Positions 14,914-51,943 of a stretch of DNA of 64,000 nucleotides are shown in pieces. The number at the start of each line of letters is the position of its first letter. The stretch's first letter is position 1. Under the pieces are notes generated by a model. That model had not been told where the DNA came from. It saw only the letters and a list, made by a program, of their open reading frames with translations, and ran no database searches. A program made the translations under genes and the position numbers. Source of the DNA: Candidatus Nomurabacteria bacterium (GTDB lineage Bacteria > Patescibacteriota > Patescibacteriia > HK-STAS-PATE-3); contig CP060223.1 in the NCBI GenBank assembly GCA_023898465.1, positions 480,001-544,000 on the forward strand, written 5' to 3'.

Positions 14914-14987
14914 TGGCTCGGGAGCAGGGACTCGAACCCCGGTTACTAGGGCCAGAACCTAGCGTCCTACCACTAGACGACTCCCGA
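14914..14987 (-). tRNA. tRNA-Gln (anticodon CUG), CCA encoded
   Basis: Hand-folded cloverleaf: acceptor TCGGGAG/CTCCCGA, D arm GTCT/GGAC, anticodon stem CTAGG/CCTAG with loop TTCTGGC, T arm CGGGG-TTCGAGT-CCCTG. U1:A72 and G73 are typical of tRNA-Gln. Confidence 0.9.
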
Positions 14988-22818: not shown

Positions 22819-22880
22819 AAGGCCTCCTGGTTTGAAAAACAAAGACCATATTCAGTCTTTGTGTTTCTTTTACATTTACT

Positions 22881-22909
22881 ATTCTAGCACACTTTTTTAC
22901 TTTTTGCAA
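22881..22909 (-). promoter_or_regulatory. sigma70-like promoter TTGCAA-N17-TAGAAT for the 22818->17956 gene string
   Basis: Read directly. The leader contains hairpin ACAAAGAC-N8-GTCTTTGT followed by UUUUC, before the SD. Confidence 0.5.
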
Positions 22910-23182
22910 GCATAAAATAACGCGTCAATTGTTTCGGCAATGTTCAATTTAATATATTACCAAACTCCCTGGACTACCACGTTCAGGGAGAGCGCTTCTT
23001 CCGCGAAGGTGGTACTTCGCGGAATTGTAAAGGTGACTTTATTGCCCCCCCTCCCTTCCCTATTCCATGCACCGTCCAAGATAAATTCTTGGACTACGCG
23101 GTTATTATTTTCTCCTGCGTAGCGCAGGCGAAGAATTCATCTTCGCCATTCAGCATCGCTGGAGTTTATACAAAAACTTCAG

Positions 23183-23223
23183 GCAAAAGAAAGACGCCTG
23201 CACTCAAATGAGTAACAGGCGTC
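23183..23223 (-). terminator. intrinsic terminator of the lipoprotein operon
   Basis: GACGCCTG-N15-CAGGCGTC followed on the minus strand by TTTCTTTTG. Confidence 0.55.
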
Positions 23224-23263
23224 ATGGTGGTGAGTGAGTCGGGAAGATCATACTTCCTCCTCA

Positions 23264-23713
23264 CTACTGTCCGCGAACCGTGAAGTCCGGTCCGCCGTTG
23301 TTGTTGGTGCACACCGCGACGACCCAAGCGTACTTGCCCGTGAAACCGCGGACGGTTTCAACTTCGTAGATGCGCTCAGCCGTGATCGCCGGCACGTTGA
23401 TGGTGAAAGTACGAAACACACGATCACTGATCTGTGACTGATACACTTTGATAGTGTATCGCCCCTCGTTCAGGGTCATAGTCCCGTACTCATTGGGATG
23501 CACGGTCAGTCTTCGCGGCGGAGTACCGTCTTGCTCGTCCGCCGCTGCATGCCGAGTGATCTCGTACGACAAGGTGTAGTTCCAGTCGTTCGAGAAGATG
23601 CCTTCCGAACCTGCGAAATCCGGTCCCGTGAGCGTGAATGCACACCCAGAGAGGAGCGACGCTACGATGCCCAGAAGAGCAACGATAGCGAAGAAACGGT
23701 TGAACACCTGCAT
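23264..23713 (-). CDS. putative lipoprotein, unknown function
   Basis: Signal peptide with lipobox LLSGC. GC-rich codon usage. 149 aa. Confidence 0.55.
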   Translation of the reverse strand: MQVFNRFFAIVALLGIVASLLSGCAFTLTGPDFAGSEGIFSNDWNYTLSYEITRHAAADEQDGTPPRRLTVHPNEYGTMTLNEGRYTIKVYQSQISDRVFRTFTINVPAITAERIYEVETVRGFTGKYAWVVAVCTNNNGGPDFTVRGQ

Positions 23714-23719
23714 TGTTCA

Positions 23720-24142
23720 TTACCTCCCAATCACCACGCCAGCAGCGTAGCGATGGTTGTAGTAGCGGAAGCTCCGTCCTTGATATGGGACGAAGAACTT
23801 TCCGTCACGTGTCTTCTTCCCATCGACGTTGAAGGATGTCCAGAGATACTTGCCCTCCGGATACCACTTCACGAAAGTCGGACATGTTCCGTCCAACGTG
23901 AATTGGTCCAGAGGATTCCTGTCAGAATCGTAGACGATCACTCGTTGCGTGAAATCCCGAAGTGGACCAGTGTTGGCGAAGATGACTTCCCCGCCTCCAG
24001 TCGACTCCACCACCTCGTGTCCATGCGCGACAGGGTTGTCGCACACGAAAACTTCGTGACAGAAGCGAGCTGTCGGTCCGCAACCCGTGAGGAGGGTCAC
24101 GCCAGCAGTCAACAACATGATGACAAAGAGCGAGCGGTTCAT
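23720..24142 (-). CDS. putative lipoprotein, unknown function
   Basis: Signal peptide with lipobox LLTGC. SD GGAGGAAAGG upstream. 140 aa. Confidence 0.55.
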   Translation of the reverse strand: MNRSLFVIMLLTAGVTLLTGCGPTARFCHEVFVCDNPVAHGHEVVESTGGGEVIFANTGPLRDFTQRVIVYDSDRNPLDQFTLDGTCPTFVKWYPEGKYLWTSFNVDGKKTRDGKFFVPYQGRSFRYYNHRYAAGVVIGR

Positions 24143-24187
24143 TTTCCTTTCCTCCGTAGCTAGAGTGCTTCCAATTGTGAACAGAGC

Positions 24188-24216
24188 ATGATAGCATATT
24201 TTCTCTATTTTGTCAA
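24188..24216 (-). promoter_or_regulatory. sigma70 promoter TTGACA-N17-TATCAT driving the lipoprotein operon
   Basis: Read directly on the minus strand. Confidence 0.55.
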
Positions 24217-24316
24217 GAGGAGTAATAAATAACCTCCAACCGAAAGCTGAAGATGGCCATCTTCAGCTGCGAATACTATTGCCCATGCACTCCTCTACTT
24301 GCTACACTTCCCCTAC

Positions 24317-32567: not shown

Positions 32568-32813
32568 TTATGAAATATCAATTTCAGCTTGGTAACCCGC
32601 TTCGCGAACCGCTTGAATAAGCTGGTCAGCCTTTACCTCATCACCGTGCGTAACCTCGGTGCGTGCTTTCGCATAATTAGTTTTTGAAGAATCAACACCA
32701 GGCAAATCCTCAATACTATCATCAATGGTCATGCTACATGAAGTACAATGCATACCACTAATTTTTAGAAGGGTCTTTTGCCTATCGCTTTGTTTTTTAC
32801 GTTGAAAAAACAT
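32568..32813 (-). CDS. copZ: heavy-metal-associated (HMA) copper chaperone
   Basis: GMHCTSCSMTI metal-binding motif. 81 aa. Confidence 0.8.
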   Translation of the reverse strand: MFFQRKKQSDRQKTLLKISGMHCTSCSMTIDDSIEDLPGVDSSKTNYAKARTEVTHGDEVKADQLIQAVREAGYQAEIDIS

Positions 32814-32829
32814 AATTGGATATTGTGAA

Positions 32830-33876
32830 TTAAATAACTTCCATCACGCCTGTATACATACCCATAGAACATGAATATGTATATCGGCCCGGTTGCGTTG
32901 GAGTAAATTGAAAACTTTGTCGGTCAGTGGGACGCAAAAAAGTGTCAATACCAAATTGTCGAAAAGTAAAAGCAACCGCACAAGAATATACGTCATTACT
33001 CTGCAATATCAACTCCACTGGCTTATTCTTTTCAACCGCAAAATATCGGGGCGAGTACCCTTGACCCAACACGTTAATGGTTACTCGCTGCACACCGTTA
33101 GTAAGTACCACTTCATCACTAACAGCCTTTGGTGTGCTTGTGTTCTGAAATTTTGCAATAATTTTTTCATACGTAATTGGTGCATCATACACATTAAGGA
33201 TCCCGTTGAAGCTGATAAGCGACAAGACAATCAAAATAGCAGCGGCAGTTTTTTGAAACCATCCATGCATCGTATCTGAGAGCTTCGCGGTCATGACGCC
33301 AAGTAAGGTAAAAATTGGTGAAGTACCAAGCACAAAGAAAAACATAATAAGGGCTCCAGCTATAGGACTGCCACTAGTAACTGCCACCACTTCCATTGCC
33401 TGAGTAACGCCGCAAGGGATAAAGACGGTCAAGACCCCTAATACTGCGGGGGCAAATAAAGTATCGCTCTTACTTGATTTCTTCACAAAGCGCTGCAGCC
33501 AACGCGGTGGCTGAAATGCTAAGAAGCGAAAGATTGGATGCACGTTTAATAAGTTCATTGCTGTAGCAAACATAAACAACGCTGCAGCAAGTTGAAAAGC
33601 GATACGCACATTTAATCCTATCGCTAACACTGAACCAAGCCAGCCAAGCAAAAAACCAAAGGCGGTGTGTACAATTAATTTCGCTAGTAAAAAAATACCT
33701 ACTGGCCAAATATCTGTTCCGCGGATTCGTGCATCGCTAGATTTTAGTGATGTTTTTCCGTTTTCAGATCGTTCCTTCTGATTAGCTATCACGCCTGCCA
33801 ACAACCCCCCTTGGACAGCTAGGCAGGTTAAGCCACCGGTAGTTAAGCCTGCTAAGAAAAAAACCCAATAATTCAT
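32830..33876 (-). CDS. TauE/UreH-like permease fused to a C-terminal cupredoxin-like domain
   Basis: ~7 TM helices. C-terminal [16 protein letters not shown] (Cys-Met cluster). Overlaps the copA stop. Confidence 0.55.
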
Positions 33877-36104
33877 ATGTGTGATCGAAACGTTTTTAAT
33901 CGTAAGGCATTAAGCACAACTGAAACACTTGAAAAGGCCATTGCAGCGCCTGCCCAAATTGGATTGATAGTAATTCCCCAAATCGGCGCTAATGCTCCCA
34001 TGGCAACGGGTATGAGAAGAACATTATAACCAAAAGCCCAAGCAAGATTTTGCCAAATATTCTTCATAGTTGCTCGAGAAAGCGCAAGAGTCACTGGAAT
34101 TAACCGTAAGTCTGGACGAAGTAACACAACTCCAGCGGTCGCAATAGCAACATCAGTTCCCTGCCCCATTGCAATACTTAGATCCGCCGCTGCCAAGGCA
34201 GGCGCGTCGTTAATTCCATCCCCAATCATTGCGACGCCTTTTTTCTGCTGCTGCAGCTCTTTTATTCGCTGCTCTTTTTCTTGTGGAAGCACCTGTCCGA
34301 TAACTTGCGAAAGTTTAAGCTCACGCTGCACGTGCTGCGCTGCTTCTCTAGTATCACCAGTGAGCATTATGGTCTGTATGCCCTGATGATTTAAGGCGGC
34401 AATTACGCTGGCGGATTCCTCACGTATCGTATCAGCAATACTAAAGGAGACGAGGGCTTCATGATTGTCGGCCACATATACACGAGACATATTCACTGGC
34501 ATGAATTGAGCCTGGTCTGCATCGATTTGGATATTCTCTTGAGCCAACAGTGAGGCACTACCAATATTCATTTGACCGATAGTATCCTTAGCCCGAACTC
34601 CTTTTCCGGGCACATCAATTATTTCAGGCGCTGTTTCTGCGCTAGGTATTCCTTTGTCATTGATATACTGCGCAATAGCTTTTGCTAAAGGATGATTTGA
34701 GCGTTCTTCAATTGTCCGGACACGGCCAAGTAACTCTTGCTGCTCCTGGACGGAAAAAGTACGCATCATTTGTATATCTTGTACACGGGGCTTGCCTTCC
34801 GTTAAGGTGCCAGTTTTATCAAACACAATGGTCTGCACACGTCTCCCCAATTCAAGCGCTTCAGCATTTTTTATAAGTATCCCAAGCTCTGAACCCTTAC
34901 CAATGCCGACCATAATTGAAGTGGGAGTGGCTAAGCCGAGCGCGCAGGGACAAGCAATAATAAGCACACTCACCATGCTTACAAGTGCGTGTGCCCAAAC
35001 TGGATCTGGTCCAAAAAATAACCAAAGTCCAAAAGTGAGCAATGAAAGAGCGATAACAATTGGCACGAAATATGCTGAGATCTTGTCAGCTAAATTCTGT
35101 ACCGGGGGTCGAGATCCTTGCGCTTCTTCAACTAAGCGTACGATTTGTGCCAGCATAGTTTCATCACCCACTCGTCTTGCTTCCATCTCAAAAGCACCGC
35201 TAGTATTCATAGTTGCGCCAATTACCTGGTCTCCTGCCTTTTTCTCTACTGGCAAGCCTTCCCCAGTCACCATGCTTTCGTCTACCGCAGAGGATCCAGA
35301 CACAATATTCCCATCAACAGGAACTTTTTCACCTGGCTTCACTAAAATACGGTCTCCTACACGCACGTCAGTAAGGGGAAGATCCTGCCAAGTTTTTTTT
35401 TGAAATACATGCGCTATTTTTGCCTCTAGCTTCAACAAACGCTTCATTGCTGTAGCTGCCTGACCTTTTGCTCGCAACTCGAGAAATTTACCCAGTAACA
35501 CTAATGTAATTACCGTAGCTGAAGTTTCAAAGTACGCTAGCTGACTAATACCTAATGCCGCTAATTGATTTTCGTAAACTATTGAGAATGCTGAGGAGGC
35601 ATAGGCTACGCTAGTTCCTAAGGCGATAAGCGTATCCATATTGGCCGTGCGATTTTTCAGCGCAGACCAAGCGCTCAGGTAATAGTTTTTTCCAGCCCAA
35701 AACTGTACCGGGGTGGCAAGTATCCACATCAACCATGACTGACGCAGCCAATCAGGCGCTCCTGGCACCATCGCGCCAATAAGCAATAGTACAGTGAGTG
35801 GGAAAGAAACAAACAATCTCTGTCTCAACTGACGCAACTCTTCGACTCGTTCCTTTTCCGTAAGATCGCCGTGATCATGTACGCCTATGTGCGCTTTATA
35901 ACCCAACTTTGCAACGGTTTGCCCTATTTCATACTCTGGAGTTGCATGAGGGTCGAAGCTAACTGCTGCTTGATGATTTCCATAATTTACCGTTGCCTCT
36001 TTTACACCTGGAAGTTTCTTTAGACGACGTTGGATATTTGCCGCACAGCTTGCGCAATGCATGCCAGACACATGAAAATTGATCTGTTGGACATTATTTG
36101 GCAT
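33873..36104 (-). CDS. copA: copper-translocating P1B-type ATPase
   Basis: N-terminal [17 protein letters not shown] ([13 protein letters not shown]), [16 protein letters not shown] place the start at MPNNVQQ (36104). Confidence 0.9.
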
Positions 36105-36573
36105 ATTTTCCTGGATTTTTTTGAAAAGCCTTTTTACATCCACTCGCGCAAAAATAATATTTCTTCCCCTGATATTGCATGGCCGCGCCGGCCGTACTCG
36201 GAGAGACACGCATGTGACATACAGGGTCATGCACGATTGGCATAAGATCCTTCATTGTCCTACTGAATTCATCAGGTTTTTTATCGCCCTGTTGAACAAC
36301 AATAATGTCGCGAATAAGTTGACTCGCCTTAGCAAAATTCGGATGAGCTAAATGGTATCGAAGACGCTTTCCCAGCCGATGATAACTTACCGCTCCAGCA
36401 TCACGAAGTATTTTAAGATGCTGACTGAGATTTGCTTGTGGCAAACCAAGCATGTCTTGCATTTCCTCAACCGTTGCTGGGCCTTCTTTTAGTAAATGTA
36501 AAACCTCCAAACGGCGCGGATGTGCAAGCGCTTTTAAAAGCTTGGCGTGGAGTTTAAAAACTTGTTCATACAT
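36094..36573 (-). CDS. ArsR/SmtB-family metalloregulator with C-terminal YHS/TRASH zinc-ribbon-like domain
   Basis: [19 protein letters not shown]...[16 protein letters not shown]-terminal DPVCHM...[13 protein letters not shown] place the start at MYEQ (36573). Confidence 0.8.
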
Positions 36574-41190: not shown

Positions 41191-41736
41191 TTACGAATAA
41201 GAGAGTTGTTCCATTTCCTTGCGTAAGGCTTGCAAAGCCCTATGTTTCAATACGCGCACATTGAGAGCACTGATCTGCATTACTTTTGCCACTTCACTTA
41301 TACTTAGATCCTCTCGATAAAGCATATGGAGCAGAGTTGCGTAGCGTTCAGGAAGGCGGGTTAAGGCTGATTCCATTTCCCGCTCCATTATTACATCTGG
41401 CATCTCATCCGGATCACTTGATAAAGTATGACTCACGCTCTCAATATCAACCTGGGTGCGTTGGCCACGATAATGATCAATCAAGCGGAAACGGGCAATT
41501 TGAAAAAGCCAGGTAGAGAATTTTGCATGTTTCTGCTCCTTATATCGGGGCAATGAGCGAATCATTTCAAGAAAAACAGTTTGGGTTAAATCCTCAGCTG
41601 TTTCCTGACTACTGACCCGCATAAGCAAGAAACGGAACACCCGGTCTCCGAAAAGGTGGAAAAGTTCGGCCACCCCTTCTTGATCCCCTTGTTGCGCTCT
41701 GGCGACGATTTCCTGTACTTGGCTTTCGTGTTGCAT
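41191..41736 (-). CDS. ECF-type sigma-70 family RNA polymerase sigma factor
   Basis: Region 2 (DLTQTVFLEMIRSL..Y....KFSTWLFQIARFRLIDHYR) and region 4 (ISEVAKVMQISALNVRVLKHRAL). Confidence 0.9.
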   Translation of the reverse strand: MQHESQVQEIVARAQQGDQEGVAELFHLFGDRVFRFLLMRVSSQETAEDLTQTVFLEMIRSLPRYKEQKHAKFSTWLFQIARFRLIDHYRGQRTQVDIESVSHTLSSDPDEMPDVIMEREMESALTRLPERYATLLHMLYREDLSISEVAKVMQISALNVRVLKHRALQALRKEMEQLSYS

Positions 41737-41798: not shown

Positions 41799-41827
41799 TT
41801 GACATTTTTTCATATCTAGTCTAGTAT
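41799..41827 (+). promoter_or_regulatory. sigma70 promoter TTGACA-N17-TAGTAT
   Basis: Read directly. Points into an ORF-free GC-rich segment. Confidence 0.5.
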
Positions 41828-41833
41828 ATGCAC

Positions 41834-42191
41834 TCGATGTTCATTAGAAATGAGAGAGAGGCGGGATGAGATAGGTGTCCCCCCAGACACCTCGCTACCT
41901 TCATACAGCGGTAGTTGCATCATCCCACTGCCCGAAGCGGCTCCCCACCCTTGTTACTACTTGTACTGGCTTCATCCCTAAGGATCCCCCGCCAGTCTGG
42001 TGCTGACATGTTCGGCGTCATATCCTTATGGTCTATTGGCTGCAAAGCTGATCACCTTTTGTGATGATGACTCACCGATGCTTCGGCTCAGATGCCTCTC
42101 TCTCCACCTACGCCTGCGCACCTGAGCACTCCCCCAGGCTCACTGCGCATGTGCCCCCGTCGTGTCGTTGTACCGACGGGGGTGCTTTTTT
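41834..42191 (+). ncRNA. candidate large structured RNA (~360 nt), unknown class
   Basis: No ORF of 60 aa or more on either strand between 41737 and 42232. An 11-nt perfect long-range complement GAGAGAGAGGC (41852-62) / GCCTCTCTCTC (42094-104). Several internal hairpins. Terminator CCCCCGTCG-N11-CGACGGGGG + U6 at 42154-42191. Confidence 0.5.
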
Positions 42192-42232
42192 ATAAAAAGA
42201 AATCCCCAGGCCGATTGGTCTGGGGATGAGAA

Positions 42233-42679
42233 CTAGAACTGTTGTGCTGAACGCATCCGATGAAGCGTGCTACACACCAGTCCAATACCAGAGCGACGCT
42301 CTACACAGAACTGATACACCCGTTGCGCCGCCATGAGCTTTTCATAGAGCGCCTGACCATGCTTAGTGGCTAGTTCGTTTCGCATCTCCCGGTCTAGACC
42401 TTGGTAATACGAACCAAGCAGCAGATAGCGCACTAGAAGCCACCCCAGTAACCCGGAGCTGAGCAGCATCGCTGTTAAAGCACCGGGCAGAGTCAGATAC
42501 CCGAGCAAATCCTCCAGTCTTGCCCAGTAGTACACTGCAACAAGCTCAAATAGCAGAAACGCTAGCGTGGCTATAGTTGACCCTATCCGGATAAACAGGC
42601 GCCACCTTTTCACTCTCTCGCACAACTCTAGAATCTCTTCTTCTTGAACACTGAGTTGCGCGTAGAGGAAATTCGACAT
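42233..42679 (-). CDS. GC-rich two-TM membrane protein, unknown function
   Basis: I place the start at MSNFLYAQ, preceded by GGGAGGTG. Terminator CCCCAG-N10-CTGGGG + U-run downstream. 66 nt downstream of the heliorhodopsin stop. Confidence 0.5.
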   Translation of the reverse strand: MSNFLYAQLSVQEEEILELCERVKRWRLFIRIGSTIATLAFLLFELVAVYYWARLEDLLGYLTLPGALTAMLLSSGLLGWLLVRYLLLGSYYQGLDREMRNELATKHGQALYEKLMAAQRVYQFCVERRSGIGLVCSTLHRMRSAQQF

Positions 42680-42745
42680 ATGCACCTCCCTCTTGCATAC
42701 CCAAAAGCAGTCTACACCCGCTGCACTGCAGGTCAAGCATTCAGG

Positions 42746-43528
42746 TTAAGGCCGGAGAGTACCGGAAAACATTTGCCAGGCTAGAGCTGATTTCGCCACC
42801 AGGGACAAAATCATATAGGCCTTTTCACCGTAGAGATAGTCCTGCCATTTCCCTATCTTCTTATACTGCAGGACCATGTTAATCGCGAAGATGTTAAAGG
42901 TGACAAAGATGGTGGCCACAATGAAATAAACAAAGGTAGGAATCTCCACTCCGGTCGACTGTACCGCGCCAATGAAGAAAGCAACAATGACCAGCCAGGG
43001 AATTAAGCCAGCCAAAACTCCTATCCAGTACGAAAGCCAATTCGTATGCTTGGTCGTCTGATTATGTACTTCCATCATCAAGCCCATGAGATTCATAATC
43101 GCATTCAAGGCAAACAGCGAAATGAGTAGCCAAAGATCGTACACACCACAAAGCATGGCAATAACTACAATCATAACTGACGAGGATAAGGCATACTCAG
43201 CCCAACGCAGCTTGTTGATGCCCTTTTTCAAATTCTCCTCATACCATTCCCGCAAAGGTCCGGCTAGAAGGAAATGCGCAAAAGCAGAAAGGAAGAGAAA
43301 GACCGCTACGGTGGGGCCTAAGCGTAAGTCAAACAAATGCTCAGGAAGTGGAGCTACACCAAAAACTGGATTATTTGGATCGATTTTCAGGTATGAAGTA
43401 ACAACTGGTAAAGATGAATTATTGCTTATCAAAACCATAATGACGCCTTGCACGAAGTGAAGGGCGGCCATTGACCAATTCCAGACTTGTAGTTTTTTTA
43501 ACTGCTCTTTTTGACTACGCATTTTCAT
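42746..43528 (-). CDS. heliorhodopsin
   Basis: 260 aa, 7 TM. RWAEYALSSSVMIVVIAMLCG and GEKAYMILSLVAKSALAWQMFSGTLRP closely match my recollection of heliorhodopsin 48C12 (RWVEYSLSSSVMIVLIAQICG; GERAYIVLSLVAKSALAWQIFSGTLIPA). This includes the Schiff-base Lys and the counterion Glu. Confidence 0.85.
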   Translation of the reverse strand: MKMRSQKEQLKKLQVWNWSMAALHFVQGVIMVLISNNSSLPVVTSYLKIDPNNPVFGVAPLPEHLFDLRLGPTVAVFLFLSAFAHFLLAGPLREWYEENLKKGINKLRWAEYALSSSVMIVVIAMLCGVYDLWLLISLFALNAIMNLMGLMMEVHNQTTKHTNWLSYWIGVLAGLIPWLVIVAFFIGAVQSTGVEIPTFVYFIVATIFVTFNIFAINMVLQYKKIGKWQDYLYGEKAYMILSLVAKSALAWQMFSGTLRP

Positions 43529-43546
43529 ACCCCCCCCTTTTTTTCT

Positions 43547-43885
43547 TTACTTAAACCGTTTGCCTAGCCACGCGCCAATCCAAACGGCAAAAAGAATAAT
43601 ACCAAAAAGAATAAGTTGCCACAACCATTGTTCGCTTTCACGCCATAGCATTAGTAGCACGAATAGTGCAGCTGGTACTAGCCAAATACCCGTCCACGCT
43701 TTCCAAAGTGATGGAAACGCAAAAGTAAAGCCAGCGCTAAAAAGCAAGTACACTGCAAAAATTATTGCTCCAGCAACTATGTAATCATTTATCCCGGCGC
43801 TATCAGAAAAAAGCACATTCAGGACGAGAAAAAATCCAAAGAGGCAGCTAAGTAGACAGGCAAGGATAATCAAAAACGTACGCAT
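43547..43885 (-). CDS. small 4-TM membrane protein
   Basis: 112-aa hydrophobic ORF directly upstream of the heliorhodopsin gene. Confidence 0.55.
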   Translation of the reverse strand: MRTFLIILACLLSCLFGFFLVLNVLFSDSAGINDYIVAGAIIFAVYLLFSAGFTFAFPSLWKAWTGIWLVPAALFVLLMLWRESEQWLWQLILFGIILFAVWIGAWLGKRFK

Positions 43886-43925: not shown

Positions 43926-45614
43926 TTACTTAGGCTCTGCTACTGGATCTGTAAGCGACGCTCCTGCTGCTGCCATCTCTTCGTGTTCAGCGTCTCTAGG
44001 TAAGAAGAAGGATGCAATGAGGGTGAGTAAGGTAAAAGCAGCTGCGTAATTCATCACATCTTTGTTTGAATCAACGATTGCCTCGTACTGTAGACGGGAT
44101 AACTGCGGCAGCAGTTCAGCTGGGATGTTAGAGGTATCACCCGGTTCAGCGTTACCGAAAGTACGAGCCTGCTCCTCAATCGCTTCAATCAACTGAGGCT
44201 TCATTGCCTCAGGGATATTTACCAAGTCCTGGACGCCTGTTTCAACATGAGAGAGTAAGGAGCTTAAGAGAATCGTCCCAATAATAGCCGTACCAAGTGC
44301 CTGGCCCACAGTACGGAAGGTGGTATTTAAACCTGACGCTTGGCCAGAAAACTGCAGTGGAATAGTGGCTAAAGTAAGATTGGTAATCTGGGACATGATT
44401 AATCCAAAACCAAAGCCATACAAGGCAAGACCGGGAATCAAATCCCATTGACTCATATCAACTGAGAACTCGCTCTTGAGCACAAAAGCACTGATGAAAG
44501 AGATGAGAATGCCGAGCTGAATAATGTAGCGAGCGTGGAAGCGACCAGTGAAACGTGAGAAAAGCCCAGCGGCGATAAACAAGGCGATCGACATCGGCAT
44601 CAATGCTAGGCCCGTATCAAAGGCGCTTAAACCCAAAATAGCCTGTAGTAAAACTGGAATGGTAAAGAAGATGCCAGATTGAGCTAATACGAGAATGGTC
44701 AATGTCACAATGCCAGTGGAAAAAGCTCGATTCTGCAATATCACTGGATTCATAAGGGGCACTAAACCATCTGCACGTTGTGAACGATGTAAGCGTCGCT
44801 GCCAAAAACCAAAAAAGATGAGTATGAGCACGCCAAGGGCTACTGCTATTGGGGTAATGGAAAGGTCAAAAGGATGTATAGCAATATCGCCCATAGAATA
44901 AATCTCTTTTGCCTTCCACCAACCGTACTGACTTGCTTCCAAGAGGCCAAACACCACCGAACCAAGACCAAACGCTGACAGGATGGCGCCTAAATAATCA
45001 AGCTTCTCGCGTGAAGCATCATGCGTGCGTGGATCACGAATATAGCGAGCCAGAGCGAGAATAACTATGACAATAATCACCTCAGTAGCAAAAGCCCAGC
45101 GCCAGCTAAAATGCGTAGTCATATAACCGCCGAATAGTGGTCCAAGTGCTGCAGTCGCGCCAGCGGTGCCGCCCCAGATGCCGAAGGCAATGCGCAAATC
45201 CCTGCCGCGGTAATTCGCCAAAATAAGCGAAACAGTAGCTGGCATCATCAATGCCGCTCCAATGCCCTCAATAATTGACCAGCCTAATATCAACACATTT
45301 ACGTTCGGACTGAGTGCGGCAGTGATAGTGCCGGTCGCATACACCACTACGCCGATAAGGAAAAGCTTTTTGCGGCCATACATATCACCTATTCTGCCAC
45401 CAGTGAGCATAAAGGCTGCCATAACAAGAGAATAGATGGTGATGGCCCACTGCACATTTCGCAAGCTTGTACCGAGATCATGCACAACGTTTCGAATAGA
45501 AACATTAAGCATGGTGGTATCAAAGATGATAATCACCAAAGCAAGGCTAAGTACAACTACTAGGCCCCACTTCTGGAACCAAGCGCGAATAGGATGTGAA
45601 GTATTTGTTTCCAT
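43926..45614 (-). CDS. MFS transporter, 14-TM DHA2 (EmrB/QacA-like)
   Basis: GGRIGDMYGRKKLF motif A, 14 hydrophobic segments. I place the start at METNTSH. Confidence 0.85.
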   Translation of the reverse strand: METNTSHPIRAWFQKWGLVVVLSLALVIIIFDTTMLNVSIRNVVHDLGTSLRNVQWAITIYSLVMAAFMLTGGRIGDMYGRKKLFLIGVVVYATGTITAALSPNVNVLILGWSIIEGIGAALMMPATVSLILANYRGRDLRIAFGIWGGTAGATAALGPLFGGYMTTHFSWRWAFATEVIIVIVILALARYIRDPRTHDASREKLDYLGAILSAFGLGSVVFGLLEASQYGWWKAKEIYSMGDIAIHPFDLSITPIAVALGVLILIFFGFWQRRLHRSQRADGLVPLMNPVILQNRAFSTGIVTLTILVLAQSGIFFTIPVLLQAILGLSAFDTGLALMPMSIALFIAAGLFSRFTGRFHARYIIQLGILISFISAFVLKSEFSVDMSQWDLIPGLALYGFGFGLIMSQITNLTLATIPLQFSGQASGLNTTFRTVGQALGTAIIGTILLSSLLSHVETGVQDLVNIPEAMKPQLIEAIEEQARTFGNAEPGDTSNIPAELLPQLSRLQYEAIVDSNKDVMNYAAAFTLLTLIASFFLPRDAEHEEMAAAGASLTDPVAEPK

Positions 45615-45715
45615 AATTGCAAAAAAATGAATGGCCGTACTCACCCGGAGCACTCCCGGATAATAACGTAACGTCAAGTATACTCGCCGCTCAATAACTT
45701 GTCGAGACTACGGCA

Positions 45716-46219
45716 TCATATCTTCCGAGCGTCATAGGCCCAGTGTAGCAGCGCCTGACGTTGCCGACGGCGACAAGCCATATCACGAGGCGCGCAATAC
45801 TTCTTGATTTGACCAACGTGACGACGAATAGCTTTCCAGCGCTTTATTTGACGCTCATCCTCCCTGGGAATACGACGGCCTGAATAATAGCGACAGTACC
45901 ATTGAAACCAACCTCGTGGATCCTCTGGATAAATCCAGCCTTTGCGCTGCCACTCTGCTAAAGATTGACTAGCGTCGACAGCAAAGAAATTGAGGTGGGG
46001 ATTATGGGTGGAGGATAATCGTGCGCCGCGAAACCATGAAGCGGGAAATTCTTTTTGACAATCATTGAGGTACTTACCCCCAAAAACACCTAGTCGCAGC
46101 ATCTGCGCAGGACTTAATTCAGGCGTAAACTCTGGAGCAAAGTTTCGGCCAGGCGCTTCTGTCCGGTAGTATGTGTAGGCCTGCTGAAAGCTATCGTTTA
46201 CTTTAACTTTTTTCTTCAT
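45716..46219 (-). CDS. conserved hypothetical protein
   Basis: I place the start at MKKKVKV. Trp/Arg-rich (GWFQWYCRYYSGRR). No family named with confidence. Confidence 0.5.
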   Translation of the reverse strand: MKKKVKVNDSFQQAYTYYRTEAPGRNFAPEFTPELSPAQMLRLGVFGGKYLNDCQKEFPASWFRGARLSSTHNPHLNFFAVDASQSLAEWQRKGWIYPEDPRGWFQWYCRYYSGRRIPREDERQIKRWKAIRRHVGQIKKYCAPRDMACRRRQRQALLHWAYDARKI

Positions 46220-46541
46220 AATCCCCTGTTGAAGCTTGCCGCACCCAGCGCTGCTCAATATAGAGCACTCGCCACCACCATCGCCCTAAGAAATACCCAC
46301 CAATCGCTCCAAGTAGTAACAAGCCAATTTGAATGTATGGTGGAAGCGCACATCCCCAGGTCCAATGTATAACCTGTCCATTTTTCTCAGCCCAGCTTAA
46401 ATACCACTGCTCAATTCCTAAATGTAACAGCAAACTTAACAGCACGCCGAACACAGTAGCGCTAATGAGATAAAGTGCATGTTTGAACGGGGTTGCTTTA
46501 AGTGGTCCGCGATGAAACATATTTAGAAAAGATTTAACCAA
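46203..46541 (-). CDS. small membrane protein
   Basis: 2-3 TM helices. Overlaps both neighbours by a few codons. Confidence 0.4.
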   Translation of the reverse strand: MVKSFLNMFHRGPLKATPFKHALYLISATVFGVLLSLLLHLGIEQWYLSWAEKNGQVIHWTWGCALPPYIQIGLLLLGAIGGYFLGRWWWRVLYIEQRWVRQASTGDYEEKS

Positions 46542-49500
46542 CCAAAGAGGTCTTGCACTGATCCTAGGATTACCTGCACAACTGTTTGTTCTTGCTGTGG
46601 AGTAAGAATAGTCAGAGGCTCAGACACCGAGGTCTGTCCACTGGAATCCGTGCTCTCCACCTTGAACTGATACACCGAACCTGGCTCAAAACTTGTCAAA
46701 ACGACAACGTGCCGTTTCGTATAGTTTGTATCAAGTGGCGTGGCTTCGGTAATTGCTTCATCAGCACTGGCAACACCCTGTCGATAGTACACTCGACTAG
46801 TGGCTGGCTCATTTGTTAGCCAGCTGATGATGGTTTGGACTTTAGTATCACGGCCCGGGGAAAGGGCTGAGTCAGTTTGAATCTGCGAGATAAGCGGAGG
46901 CGCATTCTCATCGCCGGTCACAAAGGAGTCAAGCGTCTTGGAAACCGTATTGCCATCTGCATCAACACTTACCAACTCAATTGCGTAAGTCACTCCAGAC
47001 TCAAAACTATCTACAGTCACCTGATGAATAATGGTTTGCGTATCATCTCGAACACTGCTTAACTCATCGACCGCTTTGATGTTATTGCGATAAGGTATCA
47101 CCCGTACAGTGGCATCTGCATCACGAGTGGTGGTCCAGCGGAATACCGCTTCCTCGCTTGATATTTTTTCGACGGCATAATTTTGAATATCAAAAACCTG
47201 CGGATCAGTAGTGAAACTAAAGTCTGCACTTTGCGTTGTCTGGCTAATCTTTGTTCGACTACGCACTTGGTAATGATAGGTTGTATCAGGCTGTAAGTTG
47301 TAAACCGTAACTGAATGGGTCGTGCTATAGGTTTCCGCATCACCCACCACCTGAGTATACTGTTGTGCCAGAGCAAAGTCAGCATCTGAAGCGTAAGCTA
47401 CCAGGGCATTAGAGTCTTTATCAGTTCTCCATTGGATAGTGACTGAAGTTGGACCAACATCCACGCGAGGCTCTCCACTAATAAGCGGAGTAGGAATTAT
47501 TTTTGATAACTCCTCGATGAGTTGATACTGCTCTTCTAAACTTAGCTCTAAAATATCAATGCTAACATTGCCATAGAGATCATTCAGTAGATCAAGATTT
47601 TCTTCAAGGATATTCTTAATCTCATCAGGATTGTTTCTATCGATTGGTGCAGTGCCAGACGTAGTGAATGTTTTATCGCCGGTAATCGACGTGTTGCCGC
47701 TTGCATCAACGGAAATAACTCGATAATGATAAGTAGACCCACTGTTTAATTGTTGCAGAGTAAGGCTATGACTGGTGGCATAAGTCCAGTCACCATAAAT
47801 AGTTCCGTAAACTGTGGTAAGGCCAAATTGAATAAAGCTATTCGCTTCCTCACTTGTAGTCCAACGCACAGTGGCAGCGCTATCGCTAATGTTTACCACC
47901 TCGATGCCGGTTATGCTTGGATTTGTCTCATCCTTACTACCATCAATAGCATCTTGTTCACGTTGCTCTACATCTGATTCCTCAGACAGCATTTCTAAAG
48001 TGCTAAAGGATTTTTCTGTACTCGTTGTGCTATTACCTGAAGCATCAACTGACGAAACAGTGTAATAGTATGTCGTCTTAGGGCTGAGATTACTTAAGGT
48101 AACTAAATGGGTTAGGTTGAGACTTTCGTCTAAGCTCGTTGTAACCGTATAATTTCCCGAGCTTGTCCCATAACGCAATTGAGATGTTGCTCGCTCGTTA
48201 CTTAGCCAGGTAACTACTGCTCGAGTGTCAATGACCGGATCGGCCTGTATATTTGATAAGACTGGTGGCACTGTATCACTAGTCGTAACAAAGGAGTAAT
48301 ATTCACCACCGTTGTTATCAAAAGCTACGCCTGAGGTTACATAGTAGTAATACAGGGTACCGTTTGTCAGTCCTGATAACTTCACTAAATGATTCATCGT
48401 TGGTGGAGTATCCAGACCAACCTCAATGGCATCACTCATATCTGAATTCACTGAATAGAAGACGTGTGAATCAGACTCTACATCAGTTAACCAGCTTATA
48501 CTCGCTTCAGTATTACTCACCTCTTGCGTACTTACATTAGAAATTGCTGGACCACTTAAGGTTGTTACCGTATATCCATCACCTCCGTCAGAGTCAGTTG
48601 CCGAGTTCCCACCCGGATCCTCTGAACGAACTCTGAAATAGTACGTTGTCGAGGGATCGAGTCCGGTAAGTATGACTCGGTGAACACCAACACCTGCTTC
48701 ATTATCCATCAGAGTTGCAACACCGATAGTCGTACCAAAATCAGCTGGGGTATCTGAATATCCAATAGTAGAATCAGAGAGCTCATCTGTCTCCCAGGTA
48801 ATAGTGACCGTCTGAGTACCTATCTGACTGGTTGCTACATTTGAAATAGTTGGAGGCGTACTATCAGTACCTCCTTGTCCGTTGGCAGACTCTGAGACAA
48901 CCGCCGAGTAGTAAGAAAAATTTCCATCGCTATCTTCGCTTGATATCTTATACCAATAGCTTGTATCTGCTGTAACACTTTGATCGAGATAATAGTTAAT
49001 TGCTCTATCGCTTATGTGGCTAATCGTACTATAGCTCGTGCCGTCTGTTGAACGATACACCGTGTATTCGCTAAAGCCTGGGTCGGGCAGTGCTACTGCC
49101 TTCCAAGAAATAAAGAGTTGATAGGCATCAGCTTCTACATTACTAATATCACGAATAATCACTGTTGTTGGTGTTTCTGGTGTTACCGCTGATGCACTAC
49201 TGCTGGTATTTTTGTACGCATCACGGAAACGGACATAGACTGTATCTGGATCAGTAACCAAGGAAATAGTTGAGGAAGAGGCATAGCTTACCCACGTCGC
49301 GCCAACAAAGTCACTCCGCAAAGATACTTGCATTTCAAGGCTGCTATCATCAGAGCCGGAGAGATCGAGAGAAGCGGGGTCAGTACGTGCGTCCACCACA
49401 ATTGCCGGACTACCGAGGACTGGGTCTTTTACATCAAGAGTAAAGGCGCTTGTTTCATCGCTGGCTGTATTATTTGCTAATTCCCCATCATCAATAGTGA

Positions 49501-51943
49501 CTCTAATTAAGGTAGTGGTGCTATAGGTCCCATCGATTTGGGCTTTTGCGTTCCAGCTTGCACTATATTCAGTGTAATTAGTTTCATCGATGTCTTTAGG
49601 ATCGGTTGCCCCGGATGATAGCCCTGTGGTCACGTTAAACCAATCAAGGCCATTATTTAACGAATATTCAAAACTCGGGGTCACCTGTCCTGAGCCAGAG
49701 CTGCCATCTGGGTCACGAACTGAGTAAGTGATAAGCACGCTACCATCACTGCTTTGCTGGGTAGCTGTTGGTGCGCCCTCAAACTCAGGCGGTGCATTTA
49801 CCACATACACCATAGTTGCATCATACAGTGTTGGCGCCGCATAACCGTTTGAAGACTCTAGCCATACCTTATACTGCATCCACTGATCATTCGTACTATC
49901 GGTATGAGTGCTATTCACCGTCTCTCCGCCACTTGGATCAGTATAATAATCCCCTGTGCCGCTAGGACCAAGCCAGCTTGACCAAGTACCAGGAGATCCT
50001 GAGCTATCTGGAGCGGTCCGAATCTGAAATTTGATTTCAGTACCACTCGGTAGATTTTCTGTCCAGCGCATACCCCCCAGCGCATTTAATGCATCGGTGC
50101 TATCAAAAGCAGATGAGGTCAGTGTTTGTGATGATGGGTATTGTTGATAACCGATGCTAATGTCTTCAAAGTGCGGCGAAGCACTAGTATCACTCGTCGA
50201 CATACTCACTCGATATTGAATGTATTGCTCACCATCCGTGACGCAAGCGTCAGAACTAATATCATTCCCGCTCGTTAAATTACCGCATCCGGACCAATCA
50301 GGTGCTCCACTCATGCCTGAATCATTTGAGGTACGAGCCTGAACAGTTAAAGTGGTGCTTCCTGGAACGGTAGCATTCCAACTTAAGGTATCAAAAACAG
50401 TGTTTCCGTTTGTATTAAGTGCCGCTGAGGTGAAAGTGCCCGGTGTAAGATAGGTTGAAGGAATATTAATGGCTAATCCGCTTGCACCATCAGCCATATA
50501 GCTAGTGGTGCCTGATTGCAACACATGTTTTCCGAGCGCGGTAAGTGCGGTGCTGCTCACTTCTGATGGAGAGGTTGGATTGCTCACATCAAGCACTTTT
50601 AAGCTTGCGTCATCAATAATGTACAAGTCTGTGCCTACCGCCTCTACTGAACGCACATCAGTCAAACCTGTACTATAAGCCCCTATGCGAACCGGGACAG
50701 ATGGATTACTAATATCAATAATAGTGACACCAACCGAGGAGTCTGCGGTATATGCGTAGCTACCTACTATAGCTACATCATATCCTTCATCAAAGGCTTC
50801 AAAATCATACGAATATCCTCGTACACCGCTAATAGAACCCGGGGTTCCAATATTGTATATGTTTAAACTCGCAGCCTCTCCGTAATCATCGTACCCAACC
50901 CCATATAAGTAATCACCATCAGCAACCAGGCGATACGGTCTTGCTTGATATGAAACGTTTGACGCACTGAGACTTGGGTTTACCGGATCCGCCAAAGACA
51001 ACACATAAATGCGCATCACACGACAAAAACCTGAACAACCTCCTACTGCAAAACCGGCATACAAATATGATCCACGAAGGTATACGCTGTACACCTCTCC
51101 CGTGCTTGTATATTGCCCTACTAAGCTCGGCGCATTTTTGTTGCTAATATCCACTACACGAACATCACCGGTATAGTCAGCAAGATACGCATAGTTGCCT
51201 GAAACGGTAACGTCTCGCGCGTCGTTTGTGTCGACACTACCAAGGGGCTGAGGTGATAAAGGATTCGAAATATCAAAAATTTTCAAACCATCAACGCCAT
51301 CGGCAATATAGGCATAATTACCGTCGACAAAAACTCCTTTTGCGTCAGTGGTGTCGGAATAGGCAGTGCCACCACTTGATTGGGCCAACTCAACATAGGC
51401 CCCACTTCCCGATCCCGTGACTTGAGTGCTACTCGTGGTACCTGTACCAAAATCAGCATCACTCGTTTGCACGAGAGACTGCGACGTGGTAGTTAAGCTT
51501 AGTTCCGTGCCAATGTTAAGGTTTGCATCAGCTGCTGAGTACTCATTCCAACCTGTCTGATCACCTGGATGCTGAGCAGTATTTGCAGTTTGACCACCGC
51601 TCCAGTCTGTCTGCACCCAATAATAAGTGGCCGCTCGAGAGGAACCAATAGTGAGAGCCCAAAATGTCACGCTAATGAGTAAAACAGACGAAATAATTGC
51701 TCCTGCGTAACGTCGAGAACTTTTAAAAGGCTTTATTACCTTTTGCGCTACCTTTTTATTACGTTTTAAGGAAATGGCAAGTACCCATCCAAAATATAAT
51801 GGGATAAACGCGGTATAAGGACGCTGCTTCTTGCGTTTCGCGCGAAGAAGCGTTGTTTTTTTCTGTAAGCTGGCTGATAAAGAAAATATTCCGAAACCAG
51901 CTCTTTTTGGGGGGCTTTTTTTCGCCGACCTTTTTTTGGTCAC
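46523..51943 (-). CDS. giant (1806 aa) anchored surface protein: LVIVD-repeat beta-propeller + multiple Fn3/PAP-N-like domains
   Basis: N-terminal basic region and TM helix. LVIVD-type repeats (YAYIADGVDGLKIFDISNPLSP; NYAYLADYTGDVRVVDISNKNAP; YAYTADSSVGVTIIDISNPSVP). At least 8 repeats of the pattern T.T..W.T....S.V.Y......Y........H.V.L..L.P.T.Y.Y.V.S.D..GN. Confidence 0.8.
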   Translation of the reverse strand: MTKKRSAKKSPPKRAGFGIFSLSASLQKKTTLLRAKRKKQRPYTAFIPLYFGWVLAISLKRNKKVAQKVIKPFKSSRRYAGAIISSVLLISVTFWALTIGSSRAATYYWVQTDWSGGQTANTAQHPGDQTGWNEYSAADANLNIGTELSLTTTSQSLVQTSDADFGTGTTSSTQVTGSGSGAYVELAQSSGGTAYSDTTDAKGVFVDGNYAYIADGVDGLKIFDISNPLSPQPLGSVDTNDARDVTVSGNYAYLADYTGDVRVVDISNKNAPSLVGQYTSTGEVYSVYLRGSYLYAGFAVGGCSGFCRVMRIYVLSLADPVNPSLSASNVSYQARPYRLVADGDYLYGVGYDDYGEAASLNIYNIGTPGSISGVRGYSYDFEAFDEGYDVAIVGSYAYTADSSVGVTIIDISNPSVPVRIGAYSTGLTDVRSVEAVGTDLYIIDDASLKVLDVSNPTSPSEVSSTALTALGKHVLQSGTTSYMADGASGLAINIPSTYLTPGTFTSAALNTNGNTVFDTLSWNATVPGSTTLTVQARTSNDSGMSGAPDWSGCGNLTSGNDISSDACVTDGEQYIQYRVSMSTSDTSASPHFEDISIGYQQYPSSQTLTSSAFDSTDALNALGGMRWTENLPSGTEIKFQIRTAPDSSGSPGTWSSWLGPSGTGDYYTDPSGGETVNSTHTDSTNDQWMQYKVWLESSNGYAAPTLYDATMVYVVNAPPEFEGAPTATQQSSDGSVLITYSVRDPDGSSGSGQVTPSFEYSLNNGLDWFNVTTGLSSGATDPKDIDETNYTEYSASWNAKAQIDGTYSTTTLIRVTIDDGELANNTASDETSAFTLDVKDPVLGSPAIVVDARTDPASLDLSGSDDSSLEMQVSLRSDFVGATWVSYASSSTISLVTDPDTVYVRFRDAYKNTSSSASAVTPETPTTVIIRDISNVEADAYQLFISWKAVALPDPGFSEYTVYRSTDGTSYSTISHISDRAINYYLDQSVTADTSYWYKISSEDSDGNFSYYSAVVSESANGQGGTDSTPPTISNVATSQIGTQTVTITWETDELSDSTIGYSDTPADFGTTIGVATLMDNEAGVGVHRVILTGLDPSTTYYFRVRSEDPGGNSATDSDGGDGYTVTTLSGPAISNVSTQEVSNTEASISWLTDVESDSHVFYSVNSDMSDAIEVGLDTPPTMNHLVKLSGLTNGTLYYYYVTSGVAFDNNGGEYYSFVTTSDTVPPVLSNIQADPVIDTRAVVTWLSNERATSQLRYGTSSGNYTVTTSLDESLNLTHLVTLSNLSPKTTYYYTVSSVDASGNSTTSTEKSFSTLEMLSEESDVEQREQDAIDGSKDETNPSITGIEVVNISDSAATVRWTTSEEANSFIQFGLTTVYGTIYGDWTYATSHSLTLQQLNSGSTYHYRVISVDASGNTSITGDKTFTTSGTAPIDRNNPDEIKNILEENLDLLNDLYGNVSIDILELSLEEQYQLIEELSKIIPTPLISGEPRVDVGPTSVTIQWRTDKDSNALVAYASDADFALAQQYTQVVGDAETYSTTHSVTVYNLQPDTTYHYQVRSRTKISQTTQSADFSFTTDPQVFDIQNYAVEKISSEEAVFRWTTTRDADATVRVIPYRNNIKAVDELSSVRDDTQTIIHQVTVDSFESGVTYAIELVSVDADGNTVSKTLDSFVTGDENAPPLISQIQTDSALSPGRDTKVQTIISWLTNEPATSRVYYRQGVASADEAITEATPLDTNYTKRHVVVLTSFEPGSVYQFKVESTDSSGQTSVSEPLTILTPQQEQTVVQVILGSVQDLFGWLNLF

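Follow-up and report, generated by a model that had tools for sequence, protein, structure and literature searches.

Does the heliorhodopsin (HeR) gene carried by a Candidatus Nomurabacteria bacterium stand among genes that can tell what the protein does, or among genes that only this species has placed beside it? The stretch of DNA in which this question arises, called the window below, comprises 64,000 nucleotides of the forward strand of contig CP060223.1 (positions 480,001 to 544,000; GenBank assembly GCA_023898465.1), and all window coordinates are counted from its first letter. In a first-pass annotation, made from the letters of the window, a 260 amino acid protein was taken to be a heliorhodopsin, and the small membrane proteins on either side of it were regarded as conserved and hence informative partners. 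Our own answer, to which we would assign a probability of roughly 0.8, is that the gene encodes a HeR of the candidate phyla radiation (CPR) which would serve as a slow light sensor using scavenged retinal, and that the open reading frames (ORFs) flanking it are species-specific orphans and not conserved partners. The three genes at the centre of the question are as follows.

42746..43528, minus strand: the HeR gene, a 260 amino acid ORF from the first ATG, with matches to PF18761 and NF038020
43547..43885, minus strand: tm4_112, a species-specific 112 amino acid ORF with four hydrophobic segments by hydropathy
42233..42679, minus strand: tm2_148, a species-specific 148 amino acid ORF with two hydrophobic segments by hydropathy and a GGGAGG Shine-Dalgarno sequence before its ATG at 42679

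Judged by its sequence, the central gene is a genuine and intact heliorhodopsin of a Patescibacteria (CPR) bacterium. Its product covers the whole of the Pfam profile PF18761 (positions 1-242 of 242, E=2.1e-98, 329 bits against a cutoff of 26.7) and the whole of the NCBIfam equivalog NF038020 (positions 1-244 of 244, 341 bits against a cutoff of 100); PF18761 is the sole Pfam family matched at E<=0.01, and the type-1 rhodopsin family gave no match. The seventh transmembrane helix (TM7) carries the motif SLVAK and not the DxxxK of type-1 rhodopsins. When the protein is aligned to 48C12 (PDB 6su3), H24 corresponds to H23, H85 to H80 and the counterion E111, within RWAEY, to E107, while S242 and K246 of the SLVAK motif correspond to S237 and to the Schiff-base lysine K241, in the SxxxK pattern of TM7. 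The identification proposed at first sight is thereby upheld, both by the profile search and by the aligned Schiff-base lysine, counterion glutamate and N-terminal histidine; the lysine has not been lost, and nothing places the protein with the type-1 rhodopsins. Many Lys and Arg residues stand at the N-terminus (MKMRSQKEQLKKLQ), in keeping with a cytoplasmic position, as in the predicted inverted topology. Not all seven helices are resolved by a simple hydropathy scan; chains of solved HeRs align over residues 8-260.

The window HeR is under strong purifying selection. Between it and the HeR of the closest relative for which flanking DNA is available (locus L082, 85% identity), the nonsynonymous rate (dN) is 0.107 and synonymous sites are saturated (dN/dS not computable). 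Two in-frame ATGs, 6 nt apart, are found just 3' of a run of eight G (43522-43540). Since the Shine-Dalgarno sequence formed by this G-run stops 1 nt short of the first ATG, translation more likely begins at the second one (43522), giving a protein of 258 amino acids; this second ATG is also the start in the gene calls from other samples of the same species.

Candidatus Nomurabacteria is a taxon in the Patescibacteria group, in agreement with the CPR-like backbone that had been suggested for the window, and the nearest named homologues of the HeR are Kerfeldbacteria proteins of 75-76% identity. HeRs 75% identical to that of the window, thus at the Kerfeldbacteria level, were also seen in two metagenome-assembled genomes titled 'uncultured Gammaproteobacteria bacterium' (L001 and L002), titles which may be mislabelled. 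Among the window ORFs of at least 80 amino acids no Pfam family of carotenoid or retinal metabolism was found, as the first-pass annotation had also noted for the window. CPR bacteria that carry rhodopsins are without blh, and the binding of external retinal by their type-1 rhodopsins is about as rapid as by the archaeal TaHeR (PMC9296517). Catalogues of HeRs cover several CPR classes, among them Saccharimonadia, Dojkabacteria and ABY1, with SLVAK as a common TM7 motif (PMC9166423, PMC8612252). It is already on record in the literature that CPR bacteria have HeRs, that the SLVAK motif of these is intact and that retinal synthesis is lacking.

By analogy with characterised members of the family, K246 of the window HeR would be the binding site, and E111 the counterion, for all-trans retinal that the cell scavenges from other organisms, and the protein would act as a slow-cycling light sensor that pumps no ions. 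It may moreover bind a partner protein directly and so modify its activity, in the manner of the characterised bacterial HeRs, which regulate by binding to glutamine synthetase, to a photolyase or to an ABC multidrug exporter (PMC9529153, PMC9769723, PMC11109279). Protection from oxidative stress has also been proposed as a role for HeRs (PMC8612252, PMC9166423).

The geometry of the two flanking ORFs was given correctly in the first-pass annotation: tm4_112 ends 18 nt before HeR (24 nt if the start is at 43522), the HeR stop is separated from the ATG of tm2_148 by 66 nt, and both the ORF positions and hydropathy support a four-segment and a two-segment membrane protein. Their standing as conserved partners is another matter. 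No homologue outside the species was found for either one: tm4_112 retrieved only itself among 5.8 billion clustered proteins in a word-seeded search, and tm2_148 only itself among 1.84 billion representatives in a full HMMER search. Searches of both against Pfam, NCBIfam, PHROGs and PADLOC gave nothing meaningful, and neither was detected by tblastn or by all-against-all clustering in the other HeR loci examined, whether from genomes or from metagenomes. Both are absent at the syntenic locus of L082. We conclude that tm4_112 and tm2_148 are species-specific additions and not conserved HeR partners; as they occur in no other species, their adjacency gives no comparative information on HeR function. 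The comparison of gene neighbourhoods has thus gone against the first reading of these flanks, which are conserved in no related genome.

Both orphans are probably real genes, because the same gene calls are made in three further samples of the same species (more than 99.8% identity, identical gene order) and because the differences seen in tm2_148 are biased towards synonymous ones. The same-species locus L089 differs from the window at only four positions over 3.6 kb, all of them in the last 14 codons of tm2_148 (42245-42276): three are synonymous third-position changes in the consecutive codons 143-145, and the fourth replaces Val by Ala. The pattern is small but typical of coding constraint, and suggests that tm2_148 is translated.

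The origin of the present arrangement was approached by comparison with L082, for which the following neighbouring genes have to be considered.

46203..46541, minus strand: orf112b, a small membrane protein whose gene overlaps the start of orf180 in L082 as well as in the window
45716..46222, minus strand: orf180, 168 amino acids, of a very conserved family; ancestral upstream neighbour of HeR
43926..45614, minus strand: major facilitator superfamily (MFS) transporter of the DHA2 (EmrB/QacA-type) family, 562 amino acids from its ATG; Pfam MFS_1 at E=1.5e-46
41191..41736, minus strand: extracytoplasmic function (ECF) sigma factor; Pfam Sigma70_r2, Sigma70_r4 and Sigma70_ECF; TIGR02937 at 88.9 bits
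40035..41186, minus strand: DUF5667 protein, directly 3' of the sigma gene and syntenic in L082; Pfam DUF5667 at E=5.8e-13

In L082 the order of genes is orf112b, orf180, HeR (starting 4 nt after orf180), a spacer of 461 nt, the ECF sigma factor and the DUF5667 protein, the last being presumed from its position to be the anti-sigma factor. The window contains the genes of L082 in the same order, the sigma factor being 76% identical and syntenic, with two blocks in addition: the DHA2 pump together with tm4_112 between orf180 and HeR, and tm2_148 between HeR and the spacer. A gain of these blocks in the window species is simpler than their loss in L082, since the small ORFs that they bring are found in no other species. 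Across the clade of this HeR, taken at 71% identity or more and comprising twelve species-level loci, the neighbourhood is highly fluid, and a DHA2 gene adjoins HeR in no other HeR locus examined.

Beyond this core, a surface protein of 1806 amino acids (46523-51943, minus strand) with LVIVD repeats and many fibronectin-III or purple-acid-phosphatase N-terminal-like domains runs at its end into the first 19 nt of orf112b. On the other side, at 32568-36230 on the minus strand, a copper-type cluster is composed of an HMA chaperone, a DsbD_2-cupredoxin protein and a P-type ATPase. The latter two gene types also follow immediately after HeR in the related locus L084 (1202-4849); with copper-type genes near both HeRs, the wider neighbourhood is therefore partly common to relatives.

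Two further elements frame the genes around HeR.

45677..45705, minus strand: promoter-like site TCGACA-17-TATACT agreeing with the consensus at 10 of 12 positions, within the 101 nt that precede the MFS ATG
42190..42227, minus strand: intrinsic-terminator-like hairpin and U-run (dG -16.4 kcal/mol, z=-4.1, then AUUUCUUUUUAU), directly 3' of tm2_148

The MFS gene, tm4_112, HeR and tm2_148 follow each other on one strand, separated by 40, 18 and 66 nt, and the spacer between HeR and tm2_148 contains no terminator-like fold (z=-0.37). The hairpin downstream of tm2_148 is placed back to back with a second one on the plus strand (dG -24.8 kcal/mol, then U6), the two sharing an A/T-rich spacer. The region contains nine promoter-like sites, against a mean of 7.9 in shuffled sequence, and the site at 45677..45705 is to be read as a consensus match only. 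On this basis the four genes are probably transcribed together, from the promoter-like site upstream of the MFS gene to the terminator at about 42190-42227. Co-transcription of HeR with tm2_148, one half of a proposal made in the first-pass annotation, is plausible because the spacer is without a terminator fold and a terminator follows tm2_148; the other half, that the gene transcribed with HeR is an island gene, does not stand, as discussed below.

Several points weigh against the reading that we prefer. The operon structure rests on spacing, on one consensus promoter match and on terminator folds. The direction of change rests on one close relative, and a loss in L082 would fit equally well. 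Finally, a recent and species-specific interaction of the orphan ORFs with HeR may exist in spite of their orphan status.

An alternative built on the operon itself is light-modulated efflux, in which HeR would regulate the DHA2 pump of its own operon and tm4_112, tm2_148 or both would be accessory subunits. The MFS gene passes the DHA2 family cutoff (TIGR00711, 237.3 bits against 230.2), the four genes follow each other on one strand at short distances with a promoter-like site upstream and a terminator at the end only, the substitution pattern of L089 suggests that tm2_148 is translated, and there is a precedent in a HeR that regulates the ABC multidrug exporter OmrDE (PMC11109279). These observations have to be set against an arrangement found in one species only, in a rearranged region where adjacency may be accidental. 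In addition, no MFS transporter belongs to the ten recurrent HeR operon groups (Cho et al. 2024, PMC11109279), which are glutamine synthetase, NAD+ synthetase, a photolyase, MerR, TerC, ABC transporter, short-chain dehydrogenase/reductase, alpha/beta hydrolase, DUF2177 and DUF2238; none of the ten occurs on the HeR strand between 46541 and 42233, which holds orf112b, orf180, the MFS pump, tm4_112 and tm2_148. On balance we regard light-modulated efflux as a rather unlikely explanation.

Genes that do recur near HeRs were identified by clustering all ORFs of 88 loci and from a tblastn table. The most conspicuous is orf180, whose family counts at least 8000 homologues of about 70% identity across CPR, Proteobacteria and Gemmatimonadota, with an invariant DPRGWFQWYCRYY.GRR block and four conserved Cys. 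Searches of orf180 and orf112b against Pfam, NCBIfam, PHROGs and PADLOC gave nothing meaningful, and orf180, used as a single sequence and as a profile, had only chance-level matches among PDB sequences; a Foldseek comparison of an orf180 model with viral structures yielded one unnamed homologue, of 28% identity. The gene adjoins HeR in three separate CPR lineages: in L082 (704-1219) on the same strand at 4 nt, in the Saccharibacteria locus L011 (6781-7287) on the same strand 9-10 nt downstream of HeR, and in the WWE3 locus L061 (2639-3142) in convergent orientation at 16-17 nt. In L002 it is found within 6 kb of HeR, and in two other CPR genomes checked (L101 and L102) it occurs in unrelated contexts, not beside HeR. 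By a rough and informal estimate, the number of chance orf180-HeR adjacencies expected in about 40 CPR loci is well below one.

The second recurrent neighbour is orf112b, which tblastn located near HeR in six other loci (L029, 5177-5482; L038, 4526-4804; L050, 5154-5369; L002, 2978-3304; L081, 10476-10793; L082, 429-719). Five other loci (L082, L087, L104, L078 and L022) have a homologous ECF sigma factor no more than 5 kb from HeR, with one further case seen. MsrA is found near HeR in 9-10 loci, directly adjacent in some of them, and MscL is next to HeR in four loci of the clade of the window HeR. These recurring neighbours are in keeping with the view, put forward in PMC8612252 and PMC9166423, that HeRs have a part in responding to light, oxidative or envelope stress.

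In the Kerfeldbacteria-like HeR clade (L001, L002, L087 and L104) MscL lies upstream of HeR at distances from 44 nt to 1.3 kb, and in L087 and L104 the MscL-HeR pair is preceded by an MsrA gene and by an ECF sigma/anti-sigma pair. A different association was seen in twelve Thermoplasmatota loci (L024, L034, L036, L045, L048, L055-L059, L070 and L077), where an uncharacterised protein of about 216 amino acids is encoded on either strand within about 120 nt of HeR; genes named by eye as UV-damage endonuclease-like and DUF523/DUF1722-like recur a few kb away in the same loci.

The spacer between tm2_148 and the sigma gene contains a candidate structured RNA with a promoter-like site of its own.

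41835..42192, plus strand: candidate structured RNA of about 350 nt, with the core at 41852-42104 and the terminator at 42151-42192
41799..41827, plus strand: promoter-like site TTGACA-17-TAGTAT with 10 of 12 matches, for the candidate RNA

Compared with shuffled sequence the region folds with z=-6.4 (41835-42192), its 253-nt core (41852-42104) with z=-5.7, and the 461-nt spacer of L082, in which the counterpart of the RNA is found at 2105-2470 (minus strand), with z=-8.8. In a noisy scan with 12 shuffles per segment other segments of the window reach similar folding scores, and the z-score alone is thus not special. The comparison of the two genomes is more telling. Folded independently, the window and L082 regions show the same architecture: P1 is a long closing helix, GAGAGAGAGGC/GCCUCUCUCUC, conserved in sequence; P2 is paired in both, with one or more hairpins inside, from wholly different sequences (GGGAUGA/UCAUCCC and UGUGCAG/CUGCACA); P3 is a conserved long-range helix, CCGAAGC/GCUUCGG, which closes a junction with two long arms; and the 3' part consists of a hairpin followed by the terminator. 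A covariance model made from the window alone matched L082 over its full length (E=5e-8) and nothing else in 967 kb of loci. In the alignment fitted to this model, which compares two distinct sequences from two species, 96.7% of cells are paired and 25 of the 87 pairs have changed on both sides; when the partners were slid by 1-3 columns as a control, 0-4 compensatory pairs were left. Since synonymous sites are saturated between the window and L082, the conserved blocks of the RNA can be regarded as under constraint.

In L082 the promoter-like site has the same hexamers and the same 17-nt spacing around an unrelated spacer sequence. Because this site is kept, and because a hairpin with U6 ends the element, the evidence favours an RNA on the plus strand, which would diverge from the sigma gene and converge on the HeR operon; the opposite strand of the region folds about as well in both genomes. 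No Rfam family (release 15) reaches its gathering score; at E<=1 the window region has only one chance-level match to a small RNA (20 bits against a gathering score of 60), and at E<=5 the L082 region has none. A single metagenome scan, made with the conserved motif CCCGAAGNGGN{2,3}CCCCNCCCTNGT of the RNA, gave 10 unrelated chance matches, none of which was recognised by nhmmer. L067 was rejected as a homologue of the RNA (nhmmer E=0.06), the match being inside a coding ORF without excess structure (z=-0.79), and a small ORF at the 5' end of the RNA region was rejected as a gene, there being no ATG at the matching position of L082.

These conserved elements suggest another alternative, an ancestral module in which HeR would work with orf180, and perhaps orf112b, or would feed a light input to the ECF sigma/anti-sigma pair, or both, and in which the structured RNA would belong to the circuit. 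The adjacency of orf180 in L082, L011 and L061, the six further loci with orf112b, the five loci with a homologous sigma factor at no more than 5 kb and the conservation of the RNA between both genomes that have the HeR-sigma layout all speak in its favour. The counter-evidence comes from the same genes: orf180 is very widespread, reaching into Proteobacteria and Gemmatimonadota, and is away from HeR in L101 and L102; most HeR loci of the clade are without any of the genes orf180, orf112b and sigma factor; the enrichment of the sigma factor is weak and was judged informally; the RNA was found in two species only; and in the window itself an insertion separates orf180 from HeR. We consider the module just as unlikely as light-modulated efflux, and its most explicit form, a CPR light-response module in which HeR would be the light input to gene control by sigma factor and RNA and orf180 would be the direct effector, still a little more so.

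The suggestion that tm2_148 is a horizontally acquired island gene, co-transcribed with and functionally tied to a photoreceptor of the backbone, started from its composition. Its GC content, described at first as far higher than that of HeR, is modestly raised (51.5% against 44.1%, in a window with a mean of 45.6% and a standard deviation of 4.1 points in 450-nt windows), an excess of about 1.4 standard deviations that places it among the 7.6% of 450-nt windows with as much GC; the third codon positions of both genes are close (0.557 against 0.513). The local GC maximum, 57% at 42100-42299, falls mostly past the end of tm2_148 at 42233, in non-coding DNA of the terminators and of the structured RNA, and vertical conservation is seen for this adjoining GC-rich RNA. 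The inserted blocks are flanked by neither target-site duplications nor inverted ends, only short repeats at chance level having been found there; Pfam shows no mobility domain among the neighbouring genes, and the sole tRNA of the window is far off, at 14914-14987. Database searches disclosed neither a donor nor a homologue. What supports an island is lineage specificity only, that is the absence of tm2_148 from the closest relative L082, next to the somewhat higher GC content and the plausible co-transcription with HeR. With a weak compositional signal and neither repeats nor mobility genes, the foreign origin proposed in the first-pass annotation is not sustained, and we consider an island gene tied to the photoreceptor very improbable.

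Elsewhere in the window, a GC-rich stretch (53%) at 23264-24142 on the minus strand holds two adjacent lipoprotein-like genes of 149 and 140 amino acids with lipoboxes LSGC and LTGC; the longest ORF there, on the opposite strand, is probably spurious. The wider GC-rich stretch 22850-24290 had been considered as non-coding, which was rejected in view of these two minus-strand lipoprotein genes.

That the window HeR is an ion-transporting or a decaying rhodopsin and not a sensor hardly merits belief: one viral HeR does conduct protons (cited in PMC11109279, PMC12873467) and the window has no retinal pathway, but all key residues are intact and amino acid change is strongly constrained, the closest characterised relatives, TaHeR and 48C12, are non-transporting, and a missing retinal pathway is the usual state for those CPR rhodopsins in which binding of external retinal was demonstrated (PMC9296517).

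The preferred reading, of a retinal-scavenging slow light sensor with orphan flanks, changes where partners of this HeR should be looked for. The flanking orphan ORFs cannot inform on HeR function, as nothing else encodes them. In contrast, orf180, the candidate RNA and the putative HeR-DHA2 operon each give a testable partner hypothesis for a photoreceptor family of largely open function. Of these, orf180 is worth attention as a family of at least 8000 members with no annotation or recognisable fold that is found beside HeR in three CPR lineages, and the apparent operon of HeR with a DHA2 pump appears to echo the one demonstrated case of a drug exporter regulated by a HeR.

That case, OcHeR-OmrDE, and the operons AbHeR-glutamine synthetase and TfHeR-photolyase (PMC11109279, PMC9529153, PMC9769723) likewise combine a HeR and a potentially regulated protein in one operon. 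The window differs from OcHeR-OmrDE in having an MFS pump of the DHA2 family and not an ABC exporter, and any regulatory link in it is putative. The candidate RNA resembles none of the Rfam families and would be an unclassified element of about 350 nt. With the published CPR HeRs (Bulzu 2021, PMC8612252; Chiriac 2022, PMC9166423) the window HeR has the SLVAK motif in common, whereas its flanks, the DHA2 pump and the two orphans, are the species' own. The founding HeR, 48C12 (PDB 6su3, 6uh3), comes from an actinobacterial-type fosmid and is more distant (E=3.3e-57), yet its H23, H80, E107, S237 and K241 are all kept. The best match among solved structures is TaHeR of the Thermoplasmatales archaeon SG8-52-1 (PDB 6is6, 7clj; 6is6_A at E=8.9e-79, query residues 8-260 aligned to residues 13-258 of the chain). 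The two differ in host, archaeal in the case of TaHeR, in gene context, and in two loops, the first extracellular one and that between TM5 and TM6, where the window protein has a few extra residues. The sequence SLVAKSALAWQ is identical in both, the Glu of RW.EY is conserved, and MNLMGLMME.HNQTT of TM3-TM4 is common to them; the host of TaHeR is likewise without a retinal pathway, and TaHeR takes up external retinal (PMC9296517, citing Shihoya 2019).

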